Virus record (IMG/VR): IMGVR_UViG_3300031997_000007
Coordinates: 7,958 to 71,957 of that record
Source: a virus
Reading direction: 5' to 3' (one strand)
Length of the DNA: 64,000 nt
The position numbers and the translations under genes were made by a program. A model generated the notes under the pieces. The model saw only the letters and a list, made by a program, of their open reading frames with translations, ran no database searches and had not been told where the DNA came from. Positions 29,276 through 49,142 of this stretch are shown piece after piece. Positions within the stretch are counted from its first letter, which is position 1. Each line of letters opens with the position of its first letter.

Positions 29276-31168
29276 ATGCCTTTATATCGTGACCCAATTG
29301 AGGGGTTAGTACAATACGTTAATGATATTAAACCATACCACACTAAATTAATTGATGTTGTAGTTACGTATACATATGAAGAGCGTATAAATGTTACTAT
29401 ATTAGATAATTTATTTACAACTGTAACATTTAATATGGATTACTCACGTGAGCCGTGTTTCTTTGGTTATGATACTGATAGTTATGATTATACAGCATAT
29501 AATATTCCGGATTATGGATATGCAATAAATCACGCTAATACATATAATACTGATTGTTTATTAACAGGGTGCGAACGATATTATAAAACTACTACAATTA
29601 CACCAATTATTGTAGATGATACCATATTACTACCGTTTGAATATCTATATAATATAGAAACATTATATGTATACATAAATGGTGTATTAACTAACACAAT
29701 ATTTCAACAAGTTGAACCGGTTACATATAATGATACTCAACTGGATGATTGTGATAGATATAATACAAATATAATTAAATGTTTAAGTATACTACCGATA
29801 GGTACAAGAATACTAATAACAACACATATTATTGGTGTAGACAATGAGTGCTGGTCTGATTTAGCATCATCGGGTTTTGAATCCCATCAATTTGATGAAC
29901 ATCAAATTGATTTAACAGATCCATTATTTGACAGATGGCGTTATGGATATAATAGTTATGCCCTTGATGCTACGACATACGATATGCCTGATCCAGATGA
30001 TACAAATCGTAATTGTAAATGCCCACCGTTTATACCGTATGCGTCACCAACGTCTGTACTTCCAACTATTTTAGAAGATATTAAATTTATAGATCTAATA
30101 ATATTTACAGATATTATTAACGTTACTGTATTTGATTGGTCAGATAATTGGGCTAATGGGTTTGATTTAACTCCACTTAATAATTATAGATTTGATACAA
30201 CATCATTATGGGATGTTATTGATAATATTGGATACAACTTTGGACCAACAGGACGACCTAACTTAATTAAAACTAATTTTATAATATATGATGAGCAGAA
30301 AAATGATATTTCTATTAATATAACTGATTCACATACTCAAATTGAAATTATAGATAATGACAATGAGAATTTAGGTTATGATATTTTACCTATAGATGTA
30401 TCAGAGTTTGATTCAAGTAGCGCTGTAGAAGTAATAGCAGCTGCAACTATAACAGATGTATTTACGGTAATAGAAATATTAGAATTTAAAGATATGATTG
30501 GAGTCAATGTTGTTGATCCATCATGTTGGGTAAGTGCACAGGGGCTAAATTGGGTACGAGATAATTTCTGGTATGATATGTTACCTAATCTTGCAGGAGG
30601 AAGTAATACTACTACCGAATTAGTTGATGATAGAGTTAATTGGGTACAACTTCCAACGGTAGGTGGTTTTGAATGTGATAGTCTTGGATTTGATCTTAAT
30701 GGTTTTGACAATGATCAAATATGGTCGTGCATACCATGTAGTTTAGTTGGTGGATTTGATGATAGTATGGGACTTGATGGATATTATGACGGATCAACTT
30801 ATGAACCGTATGAAAATATTCCAACTATGTTAGGACTAGATCAGGAACCGTTATGGAATAGTTATCCAGTTTTACCGTATAAAAACGATGGTACAGACTT
30901 CTATCATGGCTGTACACCAACAGAATTAACAGATTCTATAATAACAATAATTCGTACACCTACATCTGTACTAATGTCGTATATTTATTATCAAACAGAT
31001 CCATCTACAACCTGGATTATAACTCACAATTTATCTGTATTCCCTATTATTCGAGTGTTTACATTGGATGGTGTTGAAATACACCCTGCTAGTATTACAC
31101 ATATATCTTATAATACAGCGGTTATAGAGTTTAGTGAACCGACTGTTGGTATTATCCGATTCGTTTAG
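29276..31168 (+). CDS. Virion structural protein with G[FY]DxxxFD repeats and C-terminal WxIxHNL module
   Basis: YVNDIKPYHTKL N-terminus; repeats visible in the translation. Confidence 0.7.
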   Translation: MPLYRDPIEGLVQYVNDIKPYHTKLIDVVVTYTYEERINVTILDNLFTTVTFNMDYSREPCFFGYDTDSYDYTAYNIPDYGYAINHANTYNTDCLLTGCERYYKTTTITPIIVDDTILLPFEYLYNIETLYVYINGVLTNTIFQQVEPVTYNDTQLDDCDRYNTNIIKCLSILPIGTRILITTHIIGVDNECWSDLASSGFESHQFDEHQIDLTDPLFDRWRYGYNSYALDATTYDMPDPDDTNRNCKCPPFIPYASPTSVLPTILEDIKFIDLIIFTDIINVTVFDWSDNWANGFDLTPLNNYRFDTTSLWDVIDNIGYNFGPTGRPNLIKTNFIIYDEQKNDISINITDSHTQIEIIDNDNENLGYDILPIDVSEFDSSSAVEVIAAATITDVFTVIEILEFKDMIGVNVVDPSCWVSAQGLNWVRDNFWYDMLPNLAGGSNTTTELVDDRVNWVQLPTVGGFECDSLGFDLNGFDNDQIWSCIPCSLVGGFDDSMGLDGYYDGSTYEPYENIPTMLGLDQEPLWNSYPVLPYKNDGTDFYHGCTPTELTDSIITIIRTPTSVLMSYIYYQTDPSTTWIITHNLSVFPIIRVFTLDGVEIHPASITHISYNTAVIEFSEPTVGIIRFV

Positions 31169-31227
31169 TGAGATTATAAGTAATGTTAATAATAAATAAT
31201 ACACAAATATATAAGGAAATATTGTAG

Positions 31228-32496
31228 ATGAAAATCCCCTTTAGACAAGGTATAGTTAGATACCAAACGGATACATCTCAATCTCCTAGTTTTCTATATA
31301 GAGAAATATCTGGTAATTATATTTCTCTATACGTTTCTCCTATATCAACAATTATTACGTTTGCACATGGTGATGTTGATTACCTACTTGAAGAATCGTG
31401 TACTATCATACACGCTTGGGGTCCGTTTGTTACAGGTAATAATTATTACCTATATTGGGATATTAATGTAGCTACAGGCATGCGTACATTTGGATACACT
31501 AACAGTGCACCTTTGTACGGATCTCCAAAACCAGTTCATCCAGTTAACGAACAACATTGGTTTGACCTCAACACCAACACCATGTTTTATTGGAGCGGAA
31601 TGCGTTGGGTAGAATGTATTCGTGTTTTTGCTGGTAGTTACCTACAAGGTGCAAATCTCTATCAAAATATAGTTGGTAGTCAAATTGGGAATAATACTGA
31701 AATTAATGCAGGTTTTATTTTATTTGATGATAATGAGAAACCTGTTCGTAGAGCAAGATTAGATGGTAAAGGTAAATTTTTAACTACAGAATCACAATTT
31801 TATAGTGATAAAGCAGCAACTACTACTGTTAGTTTTGAAACTGTTATGCATTACGCTACTGCGAGAGAAGATCTTGCAGCGTGGAATATTGTTACATATG
31901 TTGATGCTGATGGTATTGGTCTTGCGTCTAACTTAGATATCCATCATAGACCAGCGTTTGGTTTATTACGTGAAGGGCTACCATTTGGATCTATCGGTGC
32001 TATCGTTACAAAAGGATATGTTACAAATTTAACTTGGAATTGGACTGAAGCTGCGTCGACGATATTATACTTGGGTCCGTTAGGTACGCTTCAAGTAAAT
32101 CCACCAGGAATTGGATTTATACAACAAATAGCAACTATAGTATCACCGAATACTATATTTGTTAATATTGAACCACAAATCATACATTATGATTCTGTTC
32201 AAAATACAATAACTATTCCGATTGAAGTTGATTTATTAACTGGTAAATTAACAACAAGCCCTCAAAGTGCGACAATTACTCATACAATTGGATTAACTTA
32301 TACTCAAACTATATCTAGTACTGAGTGGCTTATACCTCATAATCACGATACTATTAATTTTATTACACAAATTCATGATGAATTAGGAGATTTAATGTGG
32401 CCAGATAATGCAAGATATATTGATTCAAACCATATTAAAATTTATTTTACAGCACCTACAACTGGTACTGCACAAGTACTATTAATAAAACATTAA
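31228..32496 (+). CDS. Virion structural/fibre-associated protein
   Basis: QHWFDLNTNTMFYWSG motif; C-terminal WxIxHN module; operon context. Confidence 0.65.
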   Translation: MKIPFRQGIVRYQTDTSQSPSFLYREISGNYISLYVSPISTIITFAHGDVDYLLEESCTIIHAWGPFVTGNNYYLYWDINVATGMRTFGYTNSAPLYGSPKPVHPVNEQHWFDLNTNTMFYWSGMRWVECIRVFAGSYLQGANLYQNIVGSQIGNNTEINAGFILFDDNEKPVRRARLDGKGKFLTTESQFYSDKAATTTVSFETVMHYATAREDLAAWNIVTYVDADGIGLASNLDIHHRPAFGLLREGLPFGSIGAIVTKGYVTNLTWNWTEAASTILYLGPLGTLQVNPPGIGFIQQIATIVSPNTIFVNIEPQIIHYDSVQNTITIPIEVDLLTGKLTTSPQSATITHTIGLTYTQTISSTEWLIPHNHDTINFITQIHDELGDLMWPDNARYIDSNHIKIYFTAPTTGTAQVLLIKH

Positions 32497-32615
32497 TATA
32501 AATCATATAGTTAGCTAATAACTATTTTTATATTTATAAATAAACTTAGTATTAGATAAATAACTATGATTAAATAATTTTTCGAAAAAACTAATTTATA
32601 AATGGAGATACAAAC

Positions 32616-35306
32616 ATGAAATTAAACGGTAATCTAGTATTAAACGCTGCTGGCGCGTCTGAAGTTCAGAATTTTATTATTGAAAGAATGTCAGGATTAC
32701 CTTCGGTATTAACTAGTGAAAAGGGTCGTATTGTTTTTAATTTAACAGACGCAATCTATTACTATAATACTGGAACAATTTGGCAAGCATTCGCAACAGG
32801 TGGTAATGCATCAAATATTCAAACAGAAGTAAATAATATTGAACTGTCATTAGGAGATATGACAACTGATAATGGAGTTTTCGTTGGCTCTACATTCACT
32901 ACCCTAAATAGCACAATTTGGCCGTCAAGCCCAACTAGCTTAACAAACGCTTTAGATATATTAGCTGATTATATGTCAGGTAAAGATACCTTAGCTGAAT
33001 TAGATGATGTTCTACTTACAGATACAGCTGGTGGTCAATATTTACGATATGATGTAGGGGATTCTGTATGGGTAAATAGTACATTAGTAATTGCTGATGT
33101 AACTGATATTACATCTTCTGCTGCTGAATTAAATATTTTAGATGGTGTTACTTCATCTACATCTGAATTAAATATTTTAGATGGTGTTACGGCAACAGCT
33201 ACTGAAATCAATTTACTAGATGGTGTTGCATCTACATTAACAGTTACAGAATTAAATTATGTTGATGGAGTTACATCTGGTATTCAAAGTCAATTAGACA
33301 ATAAACAACCTTTGGATGCTGGTTTAACAGCATTATCTATATTTGACTCAGTTGGTATTATAGTTGAAACTGCTACTAATGTATGGGCAGCACGCACAAC
33401 TGTAGCTCCCACTGCTGGTATCACGATTACAAATCCTGCTGGAACAGCCGGTAATATTACTTTCGCATTAGCTAATGATTTAGCTGCGGTTGAAGGTTTA
33501 GCTACTTTAGGGTTTGCTGTTCGTGTTGAAGATGGTAGTTGGATAACCCGTAATGTTGCTACAGCTTCTACTGACCGTATCACTGTAACCAATGGAAGTG
33601 GTGTTGATGCTTCTCCAACTATAGATTTAGCAACTGTTACTAATGGTGGAACTGGTACATTCTTAAAAATTACCAGAGACTCTTATGGTCGTGTAAGCGG
33701 TACTACAGCTGTTGTACAAGGTGATATCACCGGTTTAGTAGCTAGTGTTTATGTTGATGTATCAGGTGATTCAATGACAGGTAACTTAGCTTTTGGTGGT
33801 ACTTATAAAGTTACAGGTTTAGCTTCTCCGTTAGATGGTCAAGACGCTGCTAACAAAAACTATGTAGATGGTTTAATAACTGGTATTTCTTGGAAAGAAC
33901 CTGTTGGTAGTGTAGGTGCAACAAACCCTACAACAGTAGCAATAGGTTATCGTTTCTTAAATACTACAGATAAAAAGATTTATGTTGCTACAGCTGGTTG
34001 GGTTGCTGGTGATCCAGAAGCTGATCCAGTTCTTGATCCTGTTTTAACTGTTTGGAATGCTGGCACATCTCCATCTGATAACTGGGCAGTATTCGATAAA
34101 ACTACTGATGGCGCCTATACTTATGATAGTTCTACAACCGCTTGGATTCAATTCACTGGTGCAGGTCAAATTGTTGATGGTACAGGTTTATCTAAATCAG
34201 GTAACACACTTAATGTTAACTTAGGTGCTGGTGTTGTTGCATTACCATCGGATGAAGTCGGTCTTGATTTATTCTCTGATTCAGCCTCTGCGTTAATATT
34301 AACAGTAAATGGTACAGTTCGTTCAACAGACACTGCTTCAAAATTAGCATTATTATTACCTACAGGTAGTGGTTTATATCAAGACGCAACTGGATTGTAT
34401 GTTCCAGCAAATGGCATCACAAATGGTATGATCTTAAATGAAACAATCACATTAGATGCTGACGATATCGGAACAACTGCAATTGCGTTAGGCGGTACTT
34501 TACTTATAGCTGGTACATCTACACAAGGTATTAGTACTGCTATATCTACAGGTACTGTAACTATAACAGCATCTGATGCATCTTATACCCAAAAAGGTGT
34601 TGCAAGCTTCAATACACTTGACTTTACCGTAACTGCTGGTGCTGTTAGTATTGCTTCATTGTCAAACGCACAATTAGACAACTCAAGTATTACTGTTACA
34701 GGTACAACTGGTTCTGATGCTGTTAGCTTAGGTGAGTCATTCGCTATCGTTGGTGGTACAACTCCAATTACAACTGTATCTGCTGCAAATAGTGTTACAA
34801 TCAATGTTGCAGATGCTGGTGCAGCCGCTAAAGGTCTTGCAAGTTTTAACTCAAGTCACTTCAGTGTAACAACCGGTGCTGTTAGTTTAGACGCTACAAT
34901 AGATGATCTATCAAATGTATCAAGTGCTGATGGTGCTGCTACTGACTCAATCTTAACTAAATCAGCTACTGATTGGGTTCCTGTAACTCGCGCTAACTTA
35001 TTAGGTACAGAATCAATTGATGCATTGTCTGATGTTGTTATTACTACTCCTGCATCTGGTCAAGTATTACAAAATAACGGTACAAACTGGGTTAATAAAA
35101 AAGTATATCACGTTGAGGCTATGTCTTCAAGTACAACTTGGACTGTTACTCACGGAATAGGTCAAAAATTTGTAATAGTAAATGTATATGATAGTACTGA
35201 CAATATTGTAATTCCACAATCAATCGTTGCAACAAGTACAACAGTAACCACAATTACGTTTAATACCGCTCTAGCCGGTACGGTCGCAATTTCTGGCGTT
35301 GCATAA
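32616..35306 (+). CDS. Tail/head fibre protein
   Basis: Thr/Gly/Ala-rich; ELNILDGV repeats; DAANKNYVD, LDDVLL and KGVASFN fibre motifs; TATAAATA at 32535-32542. Confidence 0.8.
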   Translation: MKLNGNLVLNAAGASEVQNFIIERMSGLPSVLTSEKGRIVFNLTDAIYYYNTGTIWQAFATGGNASNIQTEVNNIELSLGDMTTDNGVFVGSTFTTLNSTIWPSSPTSLTNALDILADYMSGKDTLAELDDVLLTDTAGGQYLRYDVGDSVWVNSTLVIADVTDITSSAAELNILDGVTSSTSELNILDGVTATATEINLLDGVASTLTVTELNYVDGVTSGIQSQLDNKQPLDAGLTALSIFDSVGIIVETATNVWAARTTVAPTAGITITNPAGTAGNITFALANDLAAVEGLATLGFAVRVEDGSWITRNVATASTDRITVTNGSGVDASPTIDLATVTNGGTGTFLKITRDSYGRVSGTTAVVQGDITGLVASVYVDVSGDSMTGNLAFGGTYKVTGLASPLDGQDAANKNYVDGLITGISWKEPVGSVGATNPTTVAIGYRFLNTTDKKIYVATAGWVAGDPEADPVLDPVLTVWNAGTSPSDNWAVFDKTTDGAYTYDSSTTAWIQFTGAGQIVDGTGLSKSGNTLNVNLGAGVVALPSDEVGLDLFSDSASALILTVNGTVRSTDTASKLALLLPTGSGLYQDATGLYVPANGITNGMILNETITLDADDIGTTAIALGGTLLIAGTSTQGISTAISTGTVTITASDASYTQKGVASFNTLDFTVTAGAVSIASLSNAQLDNSSITVTGTTGSDAVSLGESFAIVGGTTPITTVSAANSVTINVADAGAAAKGLASFNSSHFSVTTGAVSLDATIDDLSNVSSADGAATDSILTKSATDWVPVTRANLLGTESIDALSDVVITTPASGQVLQNNGTNWVNKKVYHVEAMSSSTTWTVTHGIGQKFVIVNVYDSTDNIVIPQSIVATSTTVTTITFNTALAGTVAISGVA

Positions 35307-35327
35307 TTAATTAGTAATAATTAATAT

Positions 35328-35354
35328 AAAAAGAGGACTTTAGTCCTCTTTTTT
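35328..35354 (+). terminator. Intrinsic terminator, probably bidirectional
   Basis: AAAAAGAGGAC-TTTA-GTCCTCTTTTTT. Confidence 0.85.
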
Positions 35355-35506
35355 ATTGTGTACATTATTATAATATAATAATATAACAATTGCTACAATT
35401 TTATTATATATTAGCTCTTAAAAATATTTTATAAGATTAATGATAAATATATTCATAGAGATAAATATAAATATCAATAAACATATTTAAAATGGAGAGC
35501 ACGTAT

Positions 35507-36112
35507 ATGAAGCATTTCGGTAACATCGATTTAAATAATAATCTAATGCAACAAATGGTGATGGAATTAGAAACTAATTTTCCAGATAGTCCTGTTGCCG
35601 GTCGTATCATATTTAAAGACAAACGCGTATATATGTGTGTTGAAATTTTAAATGGATTACCAGTATGGGTTCCATTGACCAATGAATTAAATACATATGT
35701 GCATCGTCAAACTGGTCAAAGTAACACATGGAACATAAACCATAACTTAAACACTACAACTCCAATGATTCAAATATATGATGTAAATCACCTTTATGTT
35801 ATTCCTAATGCTGTAGCGATTGTTGACAATAATAATTTAAATGTGACGTTTGGATATCCAATAATTGGATCTGCGGTACTTATGTTCGGTGAAGCTATTA
35901 CCGGATCCTCAAGAACATCTACAGCATATACCTCCACTCAAACAGCACCTTCATCTGCTTGGGTAATTATACATGAATTAGGGTATTTTCCAGTTGTTAG
36001 AGTATTCATCGGTAATGTTGAAGTACAACCAGATTCAATTACTCATAATTCAATATTTCAACTAACTATTAACTTCTCATCACCACAAGTTGGTGTTGCA
36101 AGATTAGTGTAA
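35507..36112 (+). CDS. Fibre-associated protein with two WxIxHNL modules
   Basis: N-terminus resembles that of the fibre gene; GGAG RBS before ATG 35507. Confidence 0.7.
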   Translation: MKHFGNIDLNNNLMQQMVMELETNFPDSPVAGRIIFKDKRVYMCVEILNGLPVWVPLTNELNTYVHRQTGQSNTWNINHNLNTTTPMIQIYDVNHLYVIPNAVAIVDNNNLNVTFGYPIIGSAVLMFGEAITGSSRTSTAYTSTQTAPSSAWVIIHELGYFPVVRVFIGNVEVQPDSITHNSIFQLTINFSSPQVGVARLV

Positions 36113-36692: not shown

Positions 36693-37811
36693 ATGTTTGA
36701 AAATACAATACCAATACCAGTACAAGTTCATGGATATGTACATATAGAAGACGATTTAGGTAATGTTTATTTAGATAAGAGCAACGCTATTCATCCAGCT
36801 AATATGGGTCGTGTTTTTGCAAGAGCTCTAGCTAATGAAAGCAATTATTGGATTAACCGTATAGCTTTTGGCAATGGTGGGACTGTTGTAGATGCGGCAT
36901 ATAATATAACATATAAAACACCTAATGATGGATTACCTCCTGATGCTGCTGGATGGAAATCGTGTCTTTATAATGAAACATATTCTGAATATATCAATGA
37001 AAGTAGCATATTAATAAGCTCTGGAGTAGGAGCTGTACCTTCAAGTGATCCACTAGCTATATTAAATAATATGTCAGGCCCGGGAGTAGTAAGTGTTGAT
37101 CAGGGATTAATATCACAAGTTGTTATAACATGTGTTTTAAATCCAAATGAACCGTTGAGTCAATATCCAACTGATATTGTTGGAAATGCTCTTAATAATG
37201 TAACTGAATATACCGAAACACCTTTTACGTTTGATGAAATTGGATTATTTACAGCGGGTACTACAGTTATTGCAACTCCCGGTACACAAAGTGTTAATGT
37301 AAGTATAAAAACAGCAACTGACCCGACTGGATTACTTCCAGATACCACATACATATTTGATATTAATGTTAGTGGAACTATACAACATATTACTATTCAT
37401 ACACCATTAACAGGATCTGGTGTTGGCGGACAAATTCTATATAGTGATTTAATTATATTATTAAATGTTACAATAGCTGATGCTACTGTTTCTATTAATG
37501 ATGGGACTAATATGACATACGGATATTTAAAGTTTACTAATGACGATGTTGGAGTTAATGCTAATATTACTTTAATAACCCCTGCTAGTCCTCCTGATAA
37601 TTGGTTATTCGATGGATTAAATAGCTTTATAGGATTTCTTGCACCTGTCAATGGAACAGATGGTGGTGTTGATAACGACTTAAATAATCCTACACATGAA
37701 GCCCAACGCATGTTAACTCATCTAATTTTTAGCCCGGTACTTAAAGCTGCAAATAGAACATTTATTATTAAATACACATTAACAATATCAGTTGCACGCT
37801 CTGAACAATAA
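36693..37811 (+). CDS. Virion structural protein (tail/baseplate associated)
   Basis: IAFGNGG, FDEIGLF and RMLTHLIFSPVLKAANRTFIIKYTL motifs. Confidence 0.7.
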   Translation: MFENTIPIPVQVHGYVHIEDDLGNVYLDKSNAIHPANMGRVFARALANESNYWINRIAFGNGGTVVDAAYNITYKTPNDGLPPDAAGWKSCLYNETYSEYINESSILISSGVGAVPSSDPLAILNNMSGPGVVSVDQGLISQVVITCVLNPNEPLSQYPTDIVGNALNNVTEYTETPFTFDEIGLFTAGTTVIATPGTQSVNVSIKTATDPTGLLPDTTYIFDINVSGTIQHITIHTPLTGSGVGGQILYSDLIILLNVTIADATVSINDGTNMTYGYLKFTNDDVGVNANITLITPASPPDNWLFDGLNSFIGFLAPVNGTDGGVDNDLNNPTHEAQRMLTHLIFSPVLKAANRTFIIKYTLTISVARSEQ

Positions 37812-37848
37812 CATCTTATATTTTAATGATAAGTAGGTATTTAAATAT

Positions 37849-38058
37849 ATGAAGGGACCAGGACAGTCGAATAGTTTTTCAAGACGTGCTAAAGCAATGG
37901 ATGGTAATAGCATACCAAATCAGTATGTTAATAAGAATTATGGTGTTAAACGTAAAGCGAAAGCCCATAAATATAGCATTATTAGTACAGGAACTGGTAA
38001 ATATTATGGCTCAAAAGCTATAATGGAAACTTTTAAAGAATTTCTTATACGCACATAA
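37849..38058 (+). CDS. Hypothetical basic protein
   Basis: ORF track. Confidence 0.5.
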   Translation: MKGPGQSNSFSRRAKAMDGNSIPNQYVNKNYGVKRKAKAHKYSIISTGTGKYYGSKAIMETFKEFLIRT

Positions 38059-38089
38059 TAAATATTTTCGCATAAATAAAAAAGAATAG

Positions 38090-38117
38090 TTGCATTAAAG
38101 AATAAATATTATATAAT
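38090..38117 (+). promoter_or_regulatory. Sigma70-type promoter TTGCAT-N16-TATAAT for the micro-ORF/tRNA region
   Basis: Near-consensus hexamers, A-rich upstream tract, AAGGAG RBS downstream. Confidence 0.6.
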
Positions 38118-38142
38118 AGAACTATAGTTCAAGGAGATGACA

Positions 38143-38205
38143 ATGAAACGAGATATAATATGGATTGCACCAGTTTTTAAAGGTCCAGGAGTTTACTGGG
38201 GTTGA
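38143..38205 (+). CDS. Micro-ORF 1, MKRDIIWIAPVFKGPGVYWG
   Basis: AAGGAG RBS; manual translation. Confidence 0.6.
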   Translation: MKRDIIWIAPVFKGPGVYWG

Positions 38206-38249
38206 TTGATAATTGGCCAACTACTGGATTTATTGATCCAGATTGGTGA
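38202..38249 (+). CDS. Micro-ORF 2, MIDNWPTTGFIDPDW (TTG start)
   Basis: TTGA overlap with the ORF1 stop; W/P composition. Confidence 0.4.
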   Translation: MIDNWPTTGFIDPDW

Positions 38250-38253
38250 TAAT

Positions 38254-38322
38254 ATGAAAGATATAATGCCTTTATTACCTTATACCGTTGTTAAACCTGG
38301 TTGGGCTCCAACTGATGTATAA
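38254..38322 (+). CDS. Micro-ORF 3, MKDIMPLLPYTVVKPGWAPTDV
   Basis: aatATGAAA start context; P/W-rich. Confidence 0.5.
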   Translation: MKDIMPLLPYTVVKPGWAPTDV

Positions 38323-38341
38323 GTGGCCTGTTGTAATATGA
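38315..38341 (+). CDS. Micro-ORF 4, MYKWPVVI
   Basis: Overlaps the ORF3 stop and the ORF5 start (ATGA). Confidence 0.3.
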   Translation: MYKWPVVI

Positions 38342-38445
38342 AAGACTTAAGACCTATTCATTGGCCAGAACTCATTTTATGGATACTACCATGTGGTATC
38401 ACATGTATTATACCAGGTTTTGGTATAATTGTTCCCGCGATGTGA
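38338..38445 (+). CDS. Micro-ORF 5, MKDLRPIHWPELILWILPCGITCIIPGFGIIVPAM
   Basis: aatATGAAA start; hydrophobic and P/W-rich. Confidence 0.5.
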   Translation: MKDLRPIHWPELILWILPCGITCIIPGFGIIVPAM

Positions 38446-38450
38446 ATAAT

Positions 38451-38588
38451 ATGAAACAAAAAGTTATTCTGCAAAAAGCGAAAAGAATTGGTACTATAAA
38501 ATGGCCAGATGATGTTCCTTGGGATATTATACTTCCATGGATTGCAGGTCCTAGACCAGCTCCATGGATTACATTCCCAGGACCATAA
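38451..38588 (+). CDS. Micro-ORF 6, MKQKVILQKAKRIGTIKWPDDVPWDIILPWIAGPRPAPWITFPGP
   Basis: aatATGAAA start; 4 Trp and 8 Pro; C-terminal part of ORF-track call 38361..38588. Confidence 0.55.
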   Translation: MKQKVILQKAKRIGTIKWPDDVPWDIILPWIAGPRPAPWITFPGP

Positions 38589-38589
38589 A

Positions 38590-38628
38590 ATGAATAAAAA
38601 TAAACAGTGGCCTATTTGGCCTAAATAA
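38590..38628 (+). CDS. Micro-ORF 7, MNKNKQWPIWPK
   Basis: Starts 1 nt after the ORF6 stop; WP twice. Confidence 0.45.
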   Translation: MNKNKQWPIWPK

Positions 38629-38672
38629 CATATAATATAAACAAGTTAAACAAATTTAAAAAGAGACAAGAA

Positions 38673-38735
38673 ATGAAAACTATCGTAATGCCCATGATTA
38701 TTGTGAAACATCCGGATGCGCCCATTATTGTGTAG
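38673..38735 (+). CDS. Putative attenuator leader peptide MKTIVMPMIIVKHPDAPIIV
   Basis: Overlaps the 5' arm of a long hairpin; composition matches the downstream tRNAs. Confidence 0.7.
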   Translation: MKTIVMPMIIVKHPDAPIIV

Positions 38736-38783
38736 ATAGTATATCGTTTTTTAAATCTACCAATAATGGGCCTGAAAGTTTCA
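38704..38783 (+). promoter_or_regulatory. Putative antiterminator hairpin
   Basis: GCCCATTATTG(720-730)/CAATAATGGGC(761-771), GTAGAT/ATCTAC and TGAAAC(704-709)/GTTTCA(778-783), all in 38xxx coordinates. Confidence 0.65.
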
Positions 38784-38802
38784 AACTTATCAGGTTTTTT
38801 TT
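38771..38802 (+). terminator. Intrinsic terminator (attenuator) upstream of the tRNA cluster
   Basis: CCTGA-AAGTT-tca-AACTT-a-TCAGG followed by T8. Confidence 0.8.
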
Positions 38803-38885
38803 ATGGTTGTTAAAACACAGAAATAAAATGTAAAAGAACACAGTAATTAAATGTAAGAAAACAAGTGAATAAAAGTGATTATCGG

Positions 38886-38959
38886 GGAGAATGTAGCTTA
38901 ATTGGTAAAGCCCTCGCCTGTGAAGTGAGTAGTTGGGAGATCGTAGCTCCTCATTCTCC
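38886..38959 (+). tRNA. tRNA-His(GUG) with G-1, atypical T-loop, no encoded CCA
   Basis: G-GAGAATG/CATTCTC-C acceptor, GCTT/AAGC D stem, CTCGC-CTGTGAA-GTGAG anticodon arm. Confidence 0.85.
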
Positions 38960-39856
38960 CCGATATACATTTTCATATTCATCTACCATGAAAACTAAGC
39001 TTTCATAAGTGATTGAGGATTTTGTTTTTTTAATATTATTATTTGTTTGTGACATTATTTCACAATTTAAAGGATGTGAAATATAATAAGGATCATAATT
39101 ATGTTTAACTGCATCTTTTACTGATATTTTATGATCTCGACTAAGCCCTGTAGGATTAAGTGTTTTATTTCCAAACTTACCACCATTGGAAAACCAACCT
39201 ACTGATTTAATTAAATTTAAATCAAATATATTAGGATAGTCATATACATTAAATTTAAATCTATATATTTGACGCATACCATCAAAATATAGTGATGCAC
39301 AGTTATAGCAATATTTTTGTTTATTTTTGATTAAAGTTACATTAGAACAATGAGTACAACAACATTTATATAATTTACTATATGGAATATTGTTTTTATC
39401 AGCTTCTGTAATTGCAATTTTTATTGATATTTTAATAAATTGAGTATTCGTAATAATACGTTCTTTACGTTCTTTACTTTTATGAGTATTTGAAATTTTA
39501 GTTTTTGTCGCAGTTGTTAGAATACGACCAGTATTAGTATATGATGCTGAACACGAATTATTACAAAAGTTATTTCTTCGTGATTTATATGGTATTATTG
39601 TAGAGCAGTATTTGCATATTTTAGGATTTAAGTTGTATGTTTGTTTAACTAATATTGCTTTTGTACGAACATAATTCGTACAATCTCGCTTTTTACAATT
39701 TTCTTTATTTTTAATTGTAACATCATCAGTTTGTATAGGATGATTAGGATATTGATTTCGAAAATTAACATATGAAATATTATGTAGTTTTAAATGATTA
39801 TTGGTTATTTTCTTAAATTGTTTAAAACAAATAGGACAAGTAATATATGAGTTCAT
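38951..39856 (-). mobile_element. Free-standing HNH homing endonuclease with Zn-finger modules, antisense within the tRNA cluster
   Basis: CPIC..H..H and CKYC..FCNNSC; C-terminal SRDHKIS...HPLNCEIMSQTNN; late-type GATAAATA at 39887-39894. Confidence 0.8.
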
Positions 39857-45350: not shown

Positions 45351-48300
45351 CTAAAATGTAAATAATTCTTTTACGTGAAATAGTTGAGCTGTTGGTACTT
45401 CTTCGTTAATAGCGTTAAGTATATGTTCTAACGGTTTATCAACTAAACGATACAGTTGTGCATCCCTATCGAGTATAGGTAAAAAGTATTCATAAAACCA
45501 AGATGGTACAGTATCAATATCTGTTGGTAATGCAATTGATTTAAACTTTCCAAATTTTGATTTAAGATAAAATACTTTTAACTTAGTTCCTGAAGTTATT
45601 ACTGGAGATTCATGATCTTCATGTTCTTTAAGCTGAATATTATAATATATAGCTGCAGCAACGTGACCGGGTAGTCTACAAGTACGATCGCGCTCATAAG
45701 ACACTGTATAATTCTCAACATTATTAACTCCTTTTGGTAACCCTATAGATAAAATATCTTGGGTGTTTATTAATTCTTTTTTATATGCAACCACTTCTGC
45801 TGCAATAGAATCCCAAGTTGCCCCTTTCAATAAACGTTCAATAAATTTTGTTAATGTTTGTTGAACTGGCTTTGGCAATGTGGTTTTCTTTAATTCTAAT
45901 CCCATTATTTTTAACTTATCAACAGCATGACCTTCACTATCGATAATATGTAACATGTATCGTTTTTTATCAACAAATATACCACGATCACTAACAATTT
46001 CTCTTGCAGTTTTTATCTTTTGATCATATCCCGGTTGACATAAAAACGCTTCTCTCATAAATGCTGGGAAAGATTTGTTTACAACCTCCGCTACCGCATC
46101 CGCAGTTTTTATTGCTTCTTCAGAGTTTTGTGTATACGTTTTATAATAACATGAATCTGTATTATGTACTAAAATATTATTAGCAAAAAATGTATGAGTG
46201 TCTTCAACTTCAATATCATAAACGTAATCATCATATTCAAGTTTTTCAATTTTTGTAATACGACATAAACTAATACCATAATCAAGAACCATTTTAGTTG
46301 CATTACCACGTTTTTTAATAATACAGTTTTGTTTTCTTGTTAATATAAATCCAATCTTTTCTCTAAATCCATAACCATCTTTAATGTTTAAATGATAACT
46401 ATATGTTCCTGTACTTATATTTTTATATAAATTAGGTGTTGTTTCTTGAAAATAATTTGACGGTATACCACAATAAAATAATAATTGCTGTACACCAATA
46501 ATATTTTCATATGTAATAGAACATAATGATACTTTACCTTTAATTGAAGTAGATCCATCTGCACTAAAATACCCACTTAAAAAATACCCAATATGCTCTT
46601 CTGTCTCTTGAAATATAAATTTTGGAATTCTTTTTATACCTGTTTCATATAATGTAGATCTAAGTAAATAATATAATTTAGACCCACATATTCTAACATC
46701 ATGAGTATTAGATTGTTCTTTAAATGAAGTAATCCATTTTTGTTTAATTAATGGTAATAATAATTTTTCAATAACTTCTTCTTTATCTTGATTTCCTATA
46801 CTTAATCCTATATTACCTTGAACTGTTTTTGCAACATAACCATCACCTAATACATACCCCATTATTTGATATATTTCTTTTGTATAATTTAAATCATTAA
46901 TATTAATTCTTGGAATTCGCTTTAGAAATATTAAACTATTAGCAATTATACCGATTTCTTCAGGCTTAACGTTAATTAATCTTGTTTCTCCTGGTTTCCA
47001 TACATTAGTGTTTCTATAACCAATTAATGAGTGGTCTTCAGTTACATCAATAAAATTTGTATTTGATATACATACTCTATACATTTGTTTAGCTGTTTTA
47101 TGTCTCATTACATACTTTACAGATTTATAACATGAATCTTGTAATACTTCATCATATGTTAGTACTTGTAAATTACTAGGATGATAATATTCTTTATTGT
47201 TAATAATTATTTCAGTTTCATTAAACAAATTACATATATTACATAATCCTATGTTTGTATATATTTTAGAATCATGTGCCACAGAGTCTCCGTATACTAT
47301 TGATTCTGAAGGAAATTCTCCTTTAAACACTGGCCCGTGTAGTGCTAAATCAGGAGAACATCCATGCTCAATACACTCTTTAACTGTTTCATATAATGGA
47401 AAATTTGTATTATATGGACCACCTAATAATTCTGATACTTTACGGCATTGATGTCGTAAAATCATTCTACCAGTTCCAGTTACAGATTCACCTGCTTCTA
47501 ATTTAAAAAATCTAAAATTATAATTGGTGAGTGCTCCATATGTACTATTTAACCGTATCTTTGTAACAAATTGTAATCGATCATAATAATTTGATTTTTC
47601 AATTAATCCATCATATTGTGTAGGATTCGCACTTGCTTCATCATGATATTGTAATTTTAATTTTTGAAATTCCTTTCGTTCAACATACCAATTACTTAAT
47701 ATTGTTGGAATAATACCCGGGTTAGTTTGATCATACACTGTTCCATATCCACTAACTGCCCATTTTTTATTCAACATATAACCAACCCATTCAGAGGTTG
47801 TTTTACTTATAGTACTACCATCTGCTAGAAATAATGTTAATTCTTCTTCTCTACGTGCATATAATGTTTCCCAATCATTAATATTATTCTCAAATTGTCC
47901 AATATATGTTTCTGGGCTAATATTTATCGCAATAATGGCTGATGGATACAGTGATGAAATATCTATTGATCCAATATGTTCATGCATACCTTGTTGTGGT
48001 AATAATACATATGCACCTTGAATACTACCATCTGCGGTATCCCACCTATCTGGAACTTTAACATTTAAATCATTATGACAATAATTAATAATAGCATAAT
48101 CAACTAACTTAACTGTACCATGAATGTGAGTAAATAACCCACATGATGAATGACACATTTCATTTGCAAGTGCCATATATCCTAATTTATCTTCAAAACC
48201 TTTCAATATTTCAGTATCACGAACATTATATCGAATAAAATGATTAAAATCATTATGATACAAAGACGCTAATGTTCCTGTATACGATAATTTAGGTAAA

Positions 48301-49142
48301 TGTGGTAAAAATTCATCTGCAATTGCCTCCAATTTATAACTTGGACGTTCTTTAAATTCATATTTTTTAAATATTTCTAAATAATCGACAGATACTCTAC
48401 CATATATATCTACAAAACATTGAGTTCGATTTCGTACAAGTGTTTCACGAAATCTAGGTATAGGTGCATCCGGAAAGGACATCCGTTTTAACGCTCGTGG
48501 GCCTAATATTTGATTAATTCGTTTACAAATATATGGGTCATCGAACCCGTTTGAATTCCAACCCGTGATTAACGTAGTGTCTTCAATAAGATCTAAAAAC
48601 CGTAATAGTAATGATCGTTCATTTTTAAAAAATTCCACTTTCGATAAATCACGTAATGATTCATCAAAATCATTCATATCAAAACCCGGCGGGGGTACTG
48701 CAAGTACATATGATTCTCCCAACCAGTAATGATGTAATGATATTGCATTTACAGGTGCGTATGGATTTAATGGTGATGAAAATCCGATTAATGGATTATA
48801 ATCAACCTCAATATCATACATAGTTATATTAAGTTTTGGTGCAGGTTGTTTATAATATAATTTAGATAATACCTTAAATTCAATATCTATATCTGATTCA
48901 TACAACTTAATTCGTTTTTCATCAATTAAGAATTTTTTTGCTTCTTCAAACTCATAATAAGAATCAAATGAATACTTTTTTAGTTTTTCATTAAAAACAC
49001 TAACATATTCACCGTCTTTATCTGCTATATAAAATTCATAAATACCTGGATATCGTTTACATGTTGTAACGTGATTTTCACTATGCCATACAAGTACTTT
49101 ATTTGTTTTTCTATCTAATTTAGCTGATATATAACTCATCAC
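45351..49142 (-). CDS. gp43: Family B DNA polymerase with intein
   Basis: YDIEVD, WNSNGFDDPY, DISSLYPS, KIRLNSTYG, YGD|TDS and KKRY. Confidence 0.97.
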   Translation of the reverse strand: MMSYISAKLDRKTNKVLVWHSENHVTTCKRYPGIYEFYIADKDGEYVSVFNEKLKKYSFDSYYEFEEAKKFLIDEKRIKLYESDIDIEFKVLSKLYYKQPAPKLNITMYDIEVDYNPLIGFSSPLNPYAPVNAISLHHYWLGESYVLAVPPPGFDMNDFDESLRDLSKVEFFKNERSLLLRFLDLIEDTTLITGWNSNGFDDPYICKRINQILGPRALKRMSFPDAPIPRFRETLVRNRTQCFVDIYGRVSVDYLEIFKKYEFKERPSYKLEAIADEFLPHLPKLSYTGTLASLYHNDFNHFIRYNVRDTEILKGFEDKLGYMALANEMCHSSCGLFTHIHGTVKLVDYAIINYCHNDLNVKVPDRWDTADGSIQGAYVLLPQQGMHEHIGSIDISSLYPSAIIAINISPETYIGQFENNINDWETLYARREEELTLFLADGSTISKTTSEWVGYMLNKKWAVSGYGTVYDQTNPGIIPTILSNWYVERKEFQKLKLQYHDEASANPTQYDGLIEKSNYYDRLQFVTKIRLNSTYGALTNYNFRFFKLEAGESVTGTGRMILRHQCRKVSELLGGPYNTNFPLYETVKECIEHGCSPDLALHGPVFKGEFPSESIVYGDSVAHDSKIYTNIGLCNICNLFNETEIIINNKEYYHPSNLQVLTYDEVLQDSCYKSVKYVMRHKTAKQMYRVCISNTNFIDVTEDHSLIGYRNTNVWKPGETRLINVKPEEIGIIANSLIFLKRIPRININDLNYTKEIYQIMGYVLGDGYVAKTVQGNIGLSIGNQDKEEVIEKLLLPLIKQKWITSFKEQSNTHDVRICGSKLYYLLRSTLYETGIKRIPKFIFQETEEHIGYFLSGYFSADGSTSIKGKVSLCSITYENIIGVQQLLFYCGIPSNYFQETTPNLYKNISTGTYSYHLNIKDGYGFREKIGFILTRKQNCIIKKRGNATKMVLDYGISLCRITKIEKLEYDDYVYDIEVEDTHTFFANNILVHNTDSCYYKTYTQNSEEAIKTADAVAEVVNKSFPAFMREAFLCQPGYDQKIKTAREIVSDRGIFVDKKRYMLHIIDSEGHAVDKLKIMGLELKKTTLPKPVQQTLTKFIERLLKGATWDSIAAEVVAYKKELINTQDILSIGLPKGVNNVENYTVSYERDRTCRLPGHVAAAIYYNIQLKEHEDHESPVITSGTKLKVFYLKSKFGKFKSIALPTDIDTVPSWFYEYFLPILDRDAQLYRLVDKPLEHILNAINEEVPTAQLFHVKELFTF
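46161..47285 (-). mobile_element. Intein (375 aa) with LAGLIDADG endonuclease in the YGDTDS motif
   Basis: YGD|SVAHDS...VTEDHSL...GYVLGDG...FLSGYFSADG...VYDIEV...LVHN|TDS. Confidence 0.95.

Follow-up and report, generated by a model that had tools for sequence, protein, structure and literature searches.

Does the DNA immediately ahead of the tRNA operon of an uncultured giant phage encode a series of very small proteins, or is it a regulatory leader, a decayed gene, or a nucleic-acid element in which reading frames arise incidentally? The question is raised by a 486-nt block (38143–38628) in the window that we analysed, a 64,000-nt stretch of a 72-kb viral record that is ~21% complete and has a G+C content of 30%. 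The window contains baseplate genes of the T4-like type, the runs listed as containing this stretch are sediment metagenomes with no RNA run among them, and the best cultured relatives of the protein encoded at 36693–37811 (hereafter the neighbour protein) are the jumbo phages XacN1, CM1/RAS14 and Xoo-sp13, at 35–39% identity. The block lies within the window's longest gene-free interval (37812–38886), which is bounded by a 69-aa ORF and by the first of the six tRNA genes of the record (His, Met, Ile, Lys, Val and Pro, in that order).

Anatomy of the micro-ORF chain

A preliminary description of this locus had reported seven abutting or overlapping ORFs of 8–45 codons, rich in Trp and Pro and preceded by a promoter and a ribosome-binding site. 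All seven are present as described, and they tile the 486 nt with 157 residues in total. The features of the locus are given below, together with a codon-usage score (log-odds per codon, with the window's long ORFs as training set) for each micro-ORF. L079 is a metagenome contig whose neighbour protein is 74% identical to that of the window, and is the only close relative whose DNA was compared.

38090–38117, plus strand: promoter P1 (TTGCAT, 16-nt spacer, TATAAT), a pattern match homologous to the leader promoter of L079
38131–38136, plus strand: AAGGAG ribosome-binding site of ORF1, duplex energy −8.5 kcal/mol
38143–38205, plus strand: micro-ORF1, 20 aa (MKRD...), 2 Trp and 2 Pro, TGA stop; frame 1, codon score 0.76
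38202–38249, plus strand: micro-ORF2, 15 aa, TTG start (TTGA on the ORF1 stop), 2 Trp and 2 Pro, TGA stop; frame 0, codon score 1.15
38254–38322, plus strand: micro-ORF3, 22 aa (MKDIMP...), 1 Trp and 4 Pro; codon score 1.20
38315–38341, plus strand: micro-ORF4, 8 aa (MYKWPVVI), ATGA overlap with ORF5; frame 2, codon score 0.18
38338–38445, plus strand: micro-ORF5, 35 aa, hydrophobic (GRAVY 1.10), 2 Trp and 5 Pro; codon score 0.43
38451–38588, plus strand: micro-ORF6, 45 aa, net charge +4, 4 Trp and 8 Pro; frame 0, codon score 0.95
38590–38628, plus strand: micro-ORF7, 12 aa (MNKNKQWPIWPK), net charge +3, two W-P; codon score 0.40
38629–38672, plus strand: second TATAAT (38631–38636) and 5′ untranslated stretch, the right-hand junction of the putative insert, from alignment with L079
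38673–38735, plus strand: conserved leader peptide of the tRNA operon (context), from comparison with L079
38712–38803, plus strand: alternative hairpins and U-run terminator of the attenuator (context), z −3.2 here and −4.0 in L079
38887–38961, plus strand: tRNA-His, first of the six phage tRNAs (context), from a tRNA search

Successive micro-ORFs overlap at TTGA (ORF1/ORF2), by 8 nt (ORF3/ORF4) and at ATGA (ORF4/ORF5), and are separated by 4 nt (ORF2/ORF3), 5 nt (ORF5/ORF6) and 1 nt (ORF6/ORF7), with the later starts lying −8 to +5 nt from the preceding stop and three of them sharing the context ATAATATGAAA. No chain of abutting ORFs as long as 486 nt appeared in 500 dinucleotide shuffles (maximum 472 nt) or among 195 windows taken antisense to late genes (maximum 393 nt). 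When only ATG starts are allowed the chain comprises 5 ORFs and 375 nt. The start codon of ORF2, for which there is a TTG and no ATG, is the least certain of the seven, ORF4 is too short to be judged alone, and at these two ORFs the tiling may have been partly picked in the preliminary description for its capture of W-P. Four of the seven micro-ORFs end in TGA, compared with 4 of 36 long ORFs (P 0.004).

The putative entry site for ribosomes is strong. The AAGGAG of ORF1, which had been noted before, indeed lies 6 nt ahead of the first ATG and pairs with a generic anti-Shine-Dalgarno sequence at −8.5 kcal/mol, compared with an average of −4.2 kcal/mol for the long genes and −1.0 kcal/mol for random 20-mers. 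ORF2 has an AGGAG ~10 nt upstream (−6.9 kcal/mol), and pairing is weak or absent at ORF3 (−2.8), ORF5 (−2.9) and ORF6 (−0.6). The promoter claimed alongside this site fared differently: P1 was missed by a consensus scan, its −35 element TTGCAT matching 3 of 6 positions, and its support comes instead from conservation in L079.

ORF6 is the sole micro-ORF already on record in public gene-calling pipelines, where it appears in a 45-aa form (P0001) and in longer forms of 65–69 aa (P0002 and P0124). The 45-aa form is the better call, because the extension in P0002 and P0124 runs through a stretch that scores as non-coding. A 699-aa ATPase-like member of the same cluster (P0123) is unrelated to ORF6. 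A structure model of ORF6 predicted from the single sequence has low confidence (pLDDT 63). The charges of the ORF1–7 peptides are +2, −3, 0, +1, 0, +4 and +3, and none of the peptides carries a signal sequence or other export signal.

The stop of ORF7 (38628) lies 45 nt before the ATG of the separate leader ORF. Of the 20 residues of this leader, 17 are His, Met, Ile, Lys, Val or Pro, the amino acids of the six downstream tRNAs; in the leader of L079 the count is 16 of 18, and at the 29% share of these residues in the proteome the probability is about 2–3e-7 for each leader. In the minimum-energy fold of the window sequence the 3′ half of the leader is base-paired to the terminator's 5′ arm, and in that of L079 the terminator hairpin forms.

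Coding signature of the frames

Three tests that are independent of homologues (the frame of particular triplets, codon usage and a frame plot) all agree on whether these frames are coding. Within the block all 14 CCA and all 9 CCT triplets are in the frame of the micro-ORF that covers them, as are 8 of 9 GGT and 14 of 19 TGG; the in-frame shares in the long genes are 75% (CCA), 81% (CCT), 71% (GGT) and 27% (TGG), and in spurious ORFs of 12–50 codons, for which GGT was left out, CCA, CCT and TGG are in frame in 20–22% of cases. If ORF2 and ORF4 are disregarded, 20 of the 23 CCA and CCT triplets are still in frame. By codon usage, real genes score 0.76 ± 0.28 and 768 spurious small ORFs score −0.35 ± 0.45, with 1.7% of the latter reaching at least 0.76 and 7.2% at least 0.4. 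Against these references ORF1, ORF2, ORF3 and ORF6 resemble real phage genes and ORF4, ORF5 and ORF7 are middling; no other intergenic small ORF of the window outscores ORF3. In the frame plot, shifts in the frame that scores best coincide with the passage from one ORF to the next. The micro-ORF frames thus look coding, and constraint at the level of the peptides is the best-supported reading; the earlier preference for selection on peptides over selection on DNA is supported by the frame statistics, by codon usage and by the shuffled-chain comparison. Two other origins were considered and rejected. Recoding or read-through that would join the three frame-1 ORFs is at odds with the long ORFs of the window, which are intact (up to 2988 aa) under translation table 11, and with the linking stretches, which score as non-coding; and an origin of the block from tRNA remnants is ruled out, as there were zero matches to tRNA models within it.

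The composition of the peptides is as unusual as had been claimed. The 157 residues include 14 Trp and 24 Pro (8.9% and 15.3%, whereas the window's 22 long ORFs have 1.27% Trp and 3.75% Pro; binomial P 1.8e-8 for Trp and 5.9e-9 for Pro), and no Ser is present in any of the seven peptides. Trp and Pro adjoin each other in 9 WP or PW dipeptides, where shuffles give 4.4 (P 0.016), and among 24,853 comparison windows of 480 nt with G+C of at most 40%, drawn from 212 fetched loci (1.63 Mb), the maximum number of WP/PW-type words is 5, against 9 in the block. There is no PP dipeptide among the 24 Pro (P 0.036), which fits productive translation.

Several of the micro-ORFs also resemble one another. 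The sequence TAATATGAAAGA, at 38250 and 38334, opens ORF3 and ORF5, both of which start M-K-D, and CTAT..TGGCCAGA occurs in two different absolute frames at 38354 (ORF5) and 38494 (ORF6), where it reads I-H-W-P-E and I-K-W-P-D, respectively. TATGGAT..ACCA is common to ORF1 and ORF5, AGTGGCCT.TT is common to ORF4 and ORF7, and ORF6 contains an in-frame tandem repeat of 27 nt, or 9 codons (38534–38558 and 38561–38585). Shared in-frame pieces of this kind are the trace that local duplication of tiny coding units would be expected to leave.

Absence from a close relative and from sequence collections

Searches for relatives of the block returned none. ORF6 found only itself, both among 5.8 billion clustered proteins and when HMMER was run against the complete set of 1.84 billion representatives, whatever their length; a protein search with a 40-aa GTG-initiated form of ORF5 gave zero homologues, and an Atlas search gave zero usable matches. 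A tBLASTn search for the micro-ORFs in related phages had been proposed in the preliminary description; tblastn and tblastx against 157 related loci yielded matches at chance level only, and related phage loci totalling 1.6 Mb gave no homologue of the block. Against 50,697 phage records, blastn of 37800–39000 found no match and tblastn of ORF6 found five chance matches (E at least 2). In IMG/VR a 17-mer from the attenuator had no match, and back-translated ORF6 motifs hit 13 loci (8 + 5), all of them unrelated high-GC frames. Searches for related loci with single neighbour proteins as query gave zero relatives; with P0007 as query they gave 42 loci, none above 49% identity except for a 48-residue fragment at 73% (L211). 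Nearer relatives are represented by the neighbour-protein records P0004 (78% identical), P0005 (73%), P0006 (68%) and P0007–P0009 (62–63%), and P0003 comes from the same phage, on contigs of up to 273 kb. Identical pieces of the block, with zero variants, occur in contigs of four further sediment DNA runs, the comparison being one of contigs in which the uncovered parts of X9–X11 are left uninterpreted. The block therefore appears, from these comparisons, to be a single-lineage ORFan.

The comparison with L079 is particularly informative. This contig has, in order, a promoter, ~40 nt, a leader ORF, the same hairpins and U-run, and tRNA genes for His, Met, Ile, Lys, Val, Pro and Pro; the sequence of the attenuator is kept, and the micro-ORF block is absent. 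P1 aligns with the L079 promoter at a score of 52 (shuffles score 24.6 ± 4.1, and none of 2000 equals it), the match taking in the −35 element and the spacer, and at the other end of the block the stretch 38629–38672 aligns with the promoter and 5′ untranslated region of L079 (8 of 2000 shuffles as good). Between P1 and the second TATAAT about 519 bp have no counterpart in L079. Because L079 keeps the operon without the block, the block would be a dispensable, lineage-specific insert, as judged from one relative. The block may either have been inserted at the −10 box or have been lost from L079 by recombination between repeats, and in both scenarios the tRNA operon and its attenuator would work without it. 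The sequence ATATAAT is found at both junctions. Because the likeness between P1 and the second promoter-like end (P2) is weak (125 of 2000 shuffles as good, P about 0.06), we make no claim of a clean promoter duplication.

The pattern of the insert is, by analogy, closest to the shuffling of early-promoter ORFan cassettes in T4-type phages, in whose hyperplastic regions such cassettes are described as being shuffled at promoter-early stem-loops, or PeSLs (PMC2839356; PMC4122927). As far as the available text of these papers describes them, PeSL cassettes are alike in consisting of small, homologue-less genes that follow a sigma-70-like promoter and that one phage has and its close relative lacks, and in having break-points at promoter sequence. 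They differ in that the block has no flanking stem-loop terminator and its promoter-like ends are only weakly similar, in that no repeated promoter family is present in the window (the P1 pattern has two matches there, one of them at the block), and in that the cassettes described carry ORFs of ordinary size in place of a chain of 8–45 codons. No stem-loop was found flanking the block. A scan for terminator-like sites listed none in 37700–39100, and the same scan also misses the hairpin of the attenuator itself.

We regard as the best reading of this locus, at a rough probability of 45%, that the block is a polycistron in which paralogous micro-genes are coupled in translation and their peptides act in trans. 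On this reading, a lineage-specific set of five to seven very small genes, accessory and probably early, would be transcribed from the sigma-70-type P1, with ribosomes loading at the strong ORF1 site and re-initiating along the coupled chain. The micro-genes would be paralogues that arose by local duplication, and the block would be an insert of 519 bp that separates promoter from leader in a tRNA operon whose attenuator works without it, with transcription continuing from the block into the leader and attenuator. The cationic peptides (ORF1, ORF6 and ORF7) and the hydrophobic one (ORF5) may act at a membrane interface, on a host protein or on the ribosome. Trp adjoining Pro is the usual route to a defined binding surface in such short chains, and it is from this feature of their composition that we infer targets of this kind.

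A competing explanation is that the block is a non-functional remnant, such as a frameshifted gene of W/P repeats, or a set of young proto-genes born by duplication, in which the coding signature is inherited and not maintained. The restriction of the block to one lineage would be expected of such sequences, as would its position in a hypervariable spot where L079 has other genes, the six changes of frame within 486 nt, the missing ATG of ORF2, the 8 codons of ORF4 and the short internal duplications. A remnant would nevertheless require six frameshifts that each fell beside a fresh start, three of them in the identical ATAATATGAAA context, to give a chain that 500 shuffles did not produce; ORF6 has no parent protein of any length among the 1.84 billion representatives; and the in-frame share of CCA plus CCT (23/23) is above that of even intact genes. 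We consider decay or recent birth without maintained function unlikely.

Relation to the attenuator and to known peptides

The position of the block raises the possibility that the micro-ORFs act in cis, as regulatory upstream ORFs encoding leader or arrest peptides, such that slow translation of Trp and Pro codons, or of a Pro or Trp before a stop, would set the flow of ribosomes or transcripts to the attenuator in the manner of tandem attenuators. The leader and hairpins themselves would fit an attenuator that lets the tRNAs be made when a shortage of them stalls ribosomes. The block belongs to the same inferred transcript, immediately 5′ of a leader that is matched to the downstream tRNAs including tRNA-Pro, TGA stops are over-represented in its ORFs, and the last residue is Pro in ORF6 and Trp in ORF2. 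His, Met, Ile, Lys, Val and Pro together make up 51% of the micro-ORF residues, compared with 29% of the proteome. This excess is mostly Pro, however, the shares being 36% and 25% when Pro is left out; as the preliminary description had observed for the cluster, tRNA-Trp is absent, in this case from among all 6 tRNAs of the 72-kb record; and the peptides lack a Pro-Pro stalling motif. Seven ORFs and 157 codons are also, to our knowledge, far beyond the extent of any known leader. The block has no RNA switch of its own, and no alternative RNA pairing between block and attenuator was found. Most directly, L079 lacks the block yet has the leader, attenuator and tRNAs in common with the window, and this absence speaks against an obligatory role in the attenuator, as far as the one alignment indicates.

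Known leaders and arrest peptides offer partial precedents. In the Salmonella mgtCBR operon the tandem leader ORFs mgtM and mgtP are described as sensing different signals, one of them being rich in Pro codons (PMC3641672), and the block resembles these and trp/his-type leaders, in what that source describes, in having several short ORFs within a long 5′ leader, one of them rich in Pro codons, ahead of a terminator/antiterminator switch. It is unlike them in that the true leader (38673–38735) is separate and the W/P block is dispensable in L079. Among the traits of the attenuator class, the block has enrichment for the sensed codons; it does not overlap the switch hairpins (38712–38803), and it is not kept with the operon in L079, the one relative compared. 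The key residues of the arrest peptide TnaC are W12, D16 and P24. Trp and a C-terminal Pro are described as mattering in the short arrest peptides SecM and TnaC (PMC10192921, PMC8450073, PMC10951299), and ORF6 contains W-I-A-G-P, which recalls the W-I...A-G-P of SecM given in the available text of PMC10192921, and likewise has a terminal Pro. The likeness to SecM amounts to five residues with a different spacing, and ORF6 is at most a candidate arrest peptide. On balance, a relay in cis seems to us an improbable account of the block. A more specific version, in which Trp/Pro arrest-type micro-cistrons form a phage translation sensor that gates transcription into the tRNA operon, is very unlikely; if it were true, the phage would read the decoding state of the host for Trp, for which it has no tRNA of its own, and for Pro, for which it does.

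The remaining alternative, also floated in the preliminary description, is that the block is an array of TGGCC(A/T), CCWGG and CCATGG motifs bound by protein, or a structured 5′ leader RNA, in which the ORFs are incidental. TGGCC is 44-fold enriched in the block, which holds 6 of the 18 copies in the window within 0.76% of its length, and 3 of the 5 window copies of AATATGAAA lie inside it; a perfect palindrome, TTGGCCAA, occupies 38213–38220 (repeat I7); two TGGCCT copies that are 9 bp apart and overlapped by ORF7 occupy the place of a −35 element for the second TATAAT; and the predicted fold of the block RNA is somewhat more stable than that of shuffles (z −2.8, 2/100). Yet the six TGGCC copies lie in three absolute frames and each reads Trp-Pro in a locally open ORF, every CCA and CCT is in frame, the flanks of TGGCC have no extended consensus, its spacing is irregular (110, 38, 140, 106 and 9 nt), and a search of the block against Rfam at E up to 10 gave only chance-level rows, so that a nucleic-acid element is disfavoured and in our view very improbable. 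The related idea of restriction-site avoidance or a decoy is ruled out by the absence of GGCC depletion elsewhere, with 27 copies in the window against about 32 expected from our own base-composition estimate.

For a polycistron of peptides acting in trans, the nearest compositional class would be the Trp-rich and Pro-rich antimicrobial peptides, of which indolicidin and tritrpticin are described as cationic peptides from animals that are cut from precursors and contain 25–40% Trp (PMC6017362). By comparison with what that source describes, ORF7 (12 aa with two W-P and a charge of +3) and the tail of ORF6 are similarly short and cationic, with Trp beside Pro; the block differs in its lower Trp content (9% overall), in the acidic ORF2 and neutral ORF3 and ORF5, and in the lack of an export signal.

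ORFs of this length are missed by gene callers, and of the seven only ORF6 is on record. If the coding reading is true, then statistics alone would point to a giant-phage family of Trp/Pro-rich peptides of 8–45 residues that was born by duplication and is encoded in a unit of only 0.6 kb. No enzyme that would modify such peptides as RiPPs was found near the block in a Pfam scan of seven neighbouring ORFs (the 72 kb of the record being 21% of the genome), the sole matches being an integron-cassette-like protein and a C92 amidase, 2.3–3 kb away. The block illustrates the uptake of new genes at a promoter-proximal site before a tRNA operon, and its peptides, if made, could be small effectors directed at the host or a new input to the control of the phage tRNA operon.

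Leader and probable attenuator of the tRNA operon

The six phage tRNA genes are preceded by a leader that has a counterpart in L079, a related metagenome contig.

38673-38803, leader and probable attenuator of the tRNA operon (counterpart, L079 2410-2530)

Histidine, methionine, isoleucine, lysine, valine and proline account for 17 of the 20 residues of the leader peptide in the window and for 16 of the 18 residues of the L079 leader, and these six amino acids are the specificities of the tRNAs encoded downstream. Alternative hairpins and a U-run, both of which are conserved, lie 3′ of the leader. The region looks like a self-regulating attenuator for the phage tRNA genes.

Stop codons and database cluster of the micro-ORFs

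TGA serves as the stop codon of four of the seven Trp/Pro-rich micro-ORFs at 38143-38628, as against 4/36 window ORFs of at least 150 aa (P 0.004); ATGA/TTGA overlaps account for two of these four TGA stops. The 45-aa peptide of micro-ORF6 (database entry P0001) represents a 90% cluster that also lists P0123, a P-type-ATPase-like protein of 699 aa. Because P0123 and the micro-ORF6 peptide are unrelated in sequence, this membership looks like a clustering artefact.

Other ORFs of the window

Four consecutive ORFs (630, 422, 896 and 206 aa) at 29276-36112 have in common a C-terminal module of ~65 aa that matches phrog_21918. The module is apparently a tail-fibre or adaptor end that the four share. 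The window also contains a DNA polymerase ORF.

45351-49142, minus strand, DNA polymerase ORF of 1263 aa with polymerase-family matches

These matches fall in two separated parts of the ORF, residues 2-580 and 994-1260, and the ~400 residues between them, which have no match, could represent an intein or some other insertion.

Apparently lineage-specific content around the tRNA genes

In the interval that separates the structural gene from the tRNA promoter, L079 (1429-2227) carries a 131-aa hydrophobic ORF and, on the opposite strand, a 138-aa ORF, whereas the counterpart of this content in the window is a 69-aa basic ORF. The ORFs differ between the two, and the interval is therefore hypervariable. 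Within the operon, another ORF lies between tRNA-His and tRNA-Met and has an 11-nt overlap with the tRNA-His 3′ end.

38951-39856, minus strand, ORF of 301 aa matching PHROG families of unknown function

The N-terminus of this ORF is rich in Cys. The corresponding gap in L079 is 27 nt and empty. The 301-aa ORF appears to be the second insert specific to this lineage and may be a mobile gene of the nuclease type.
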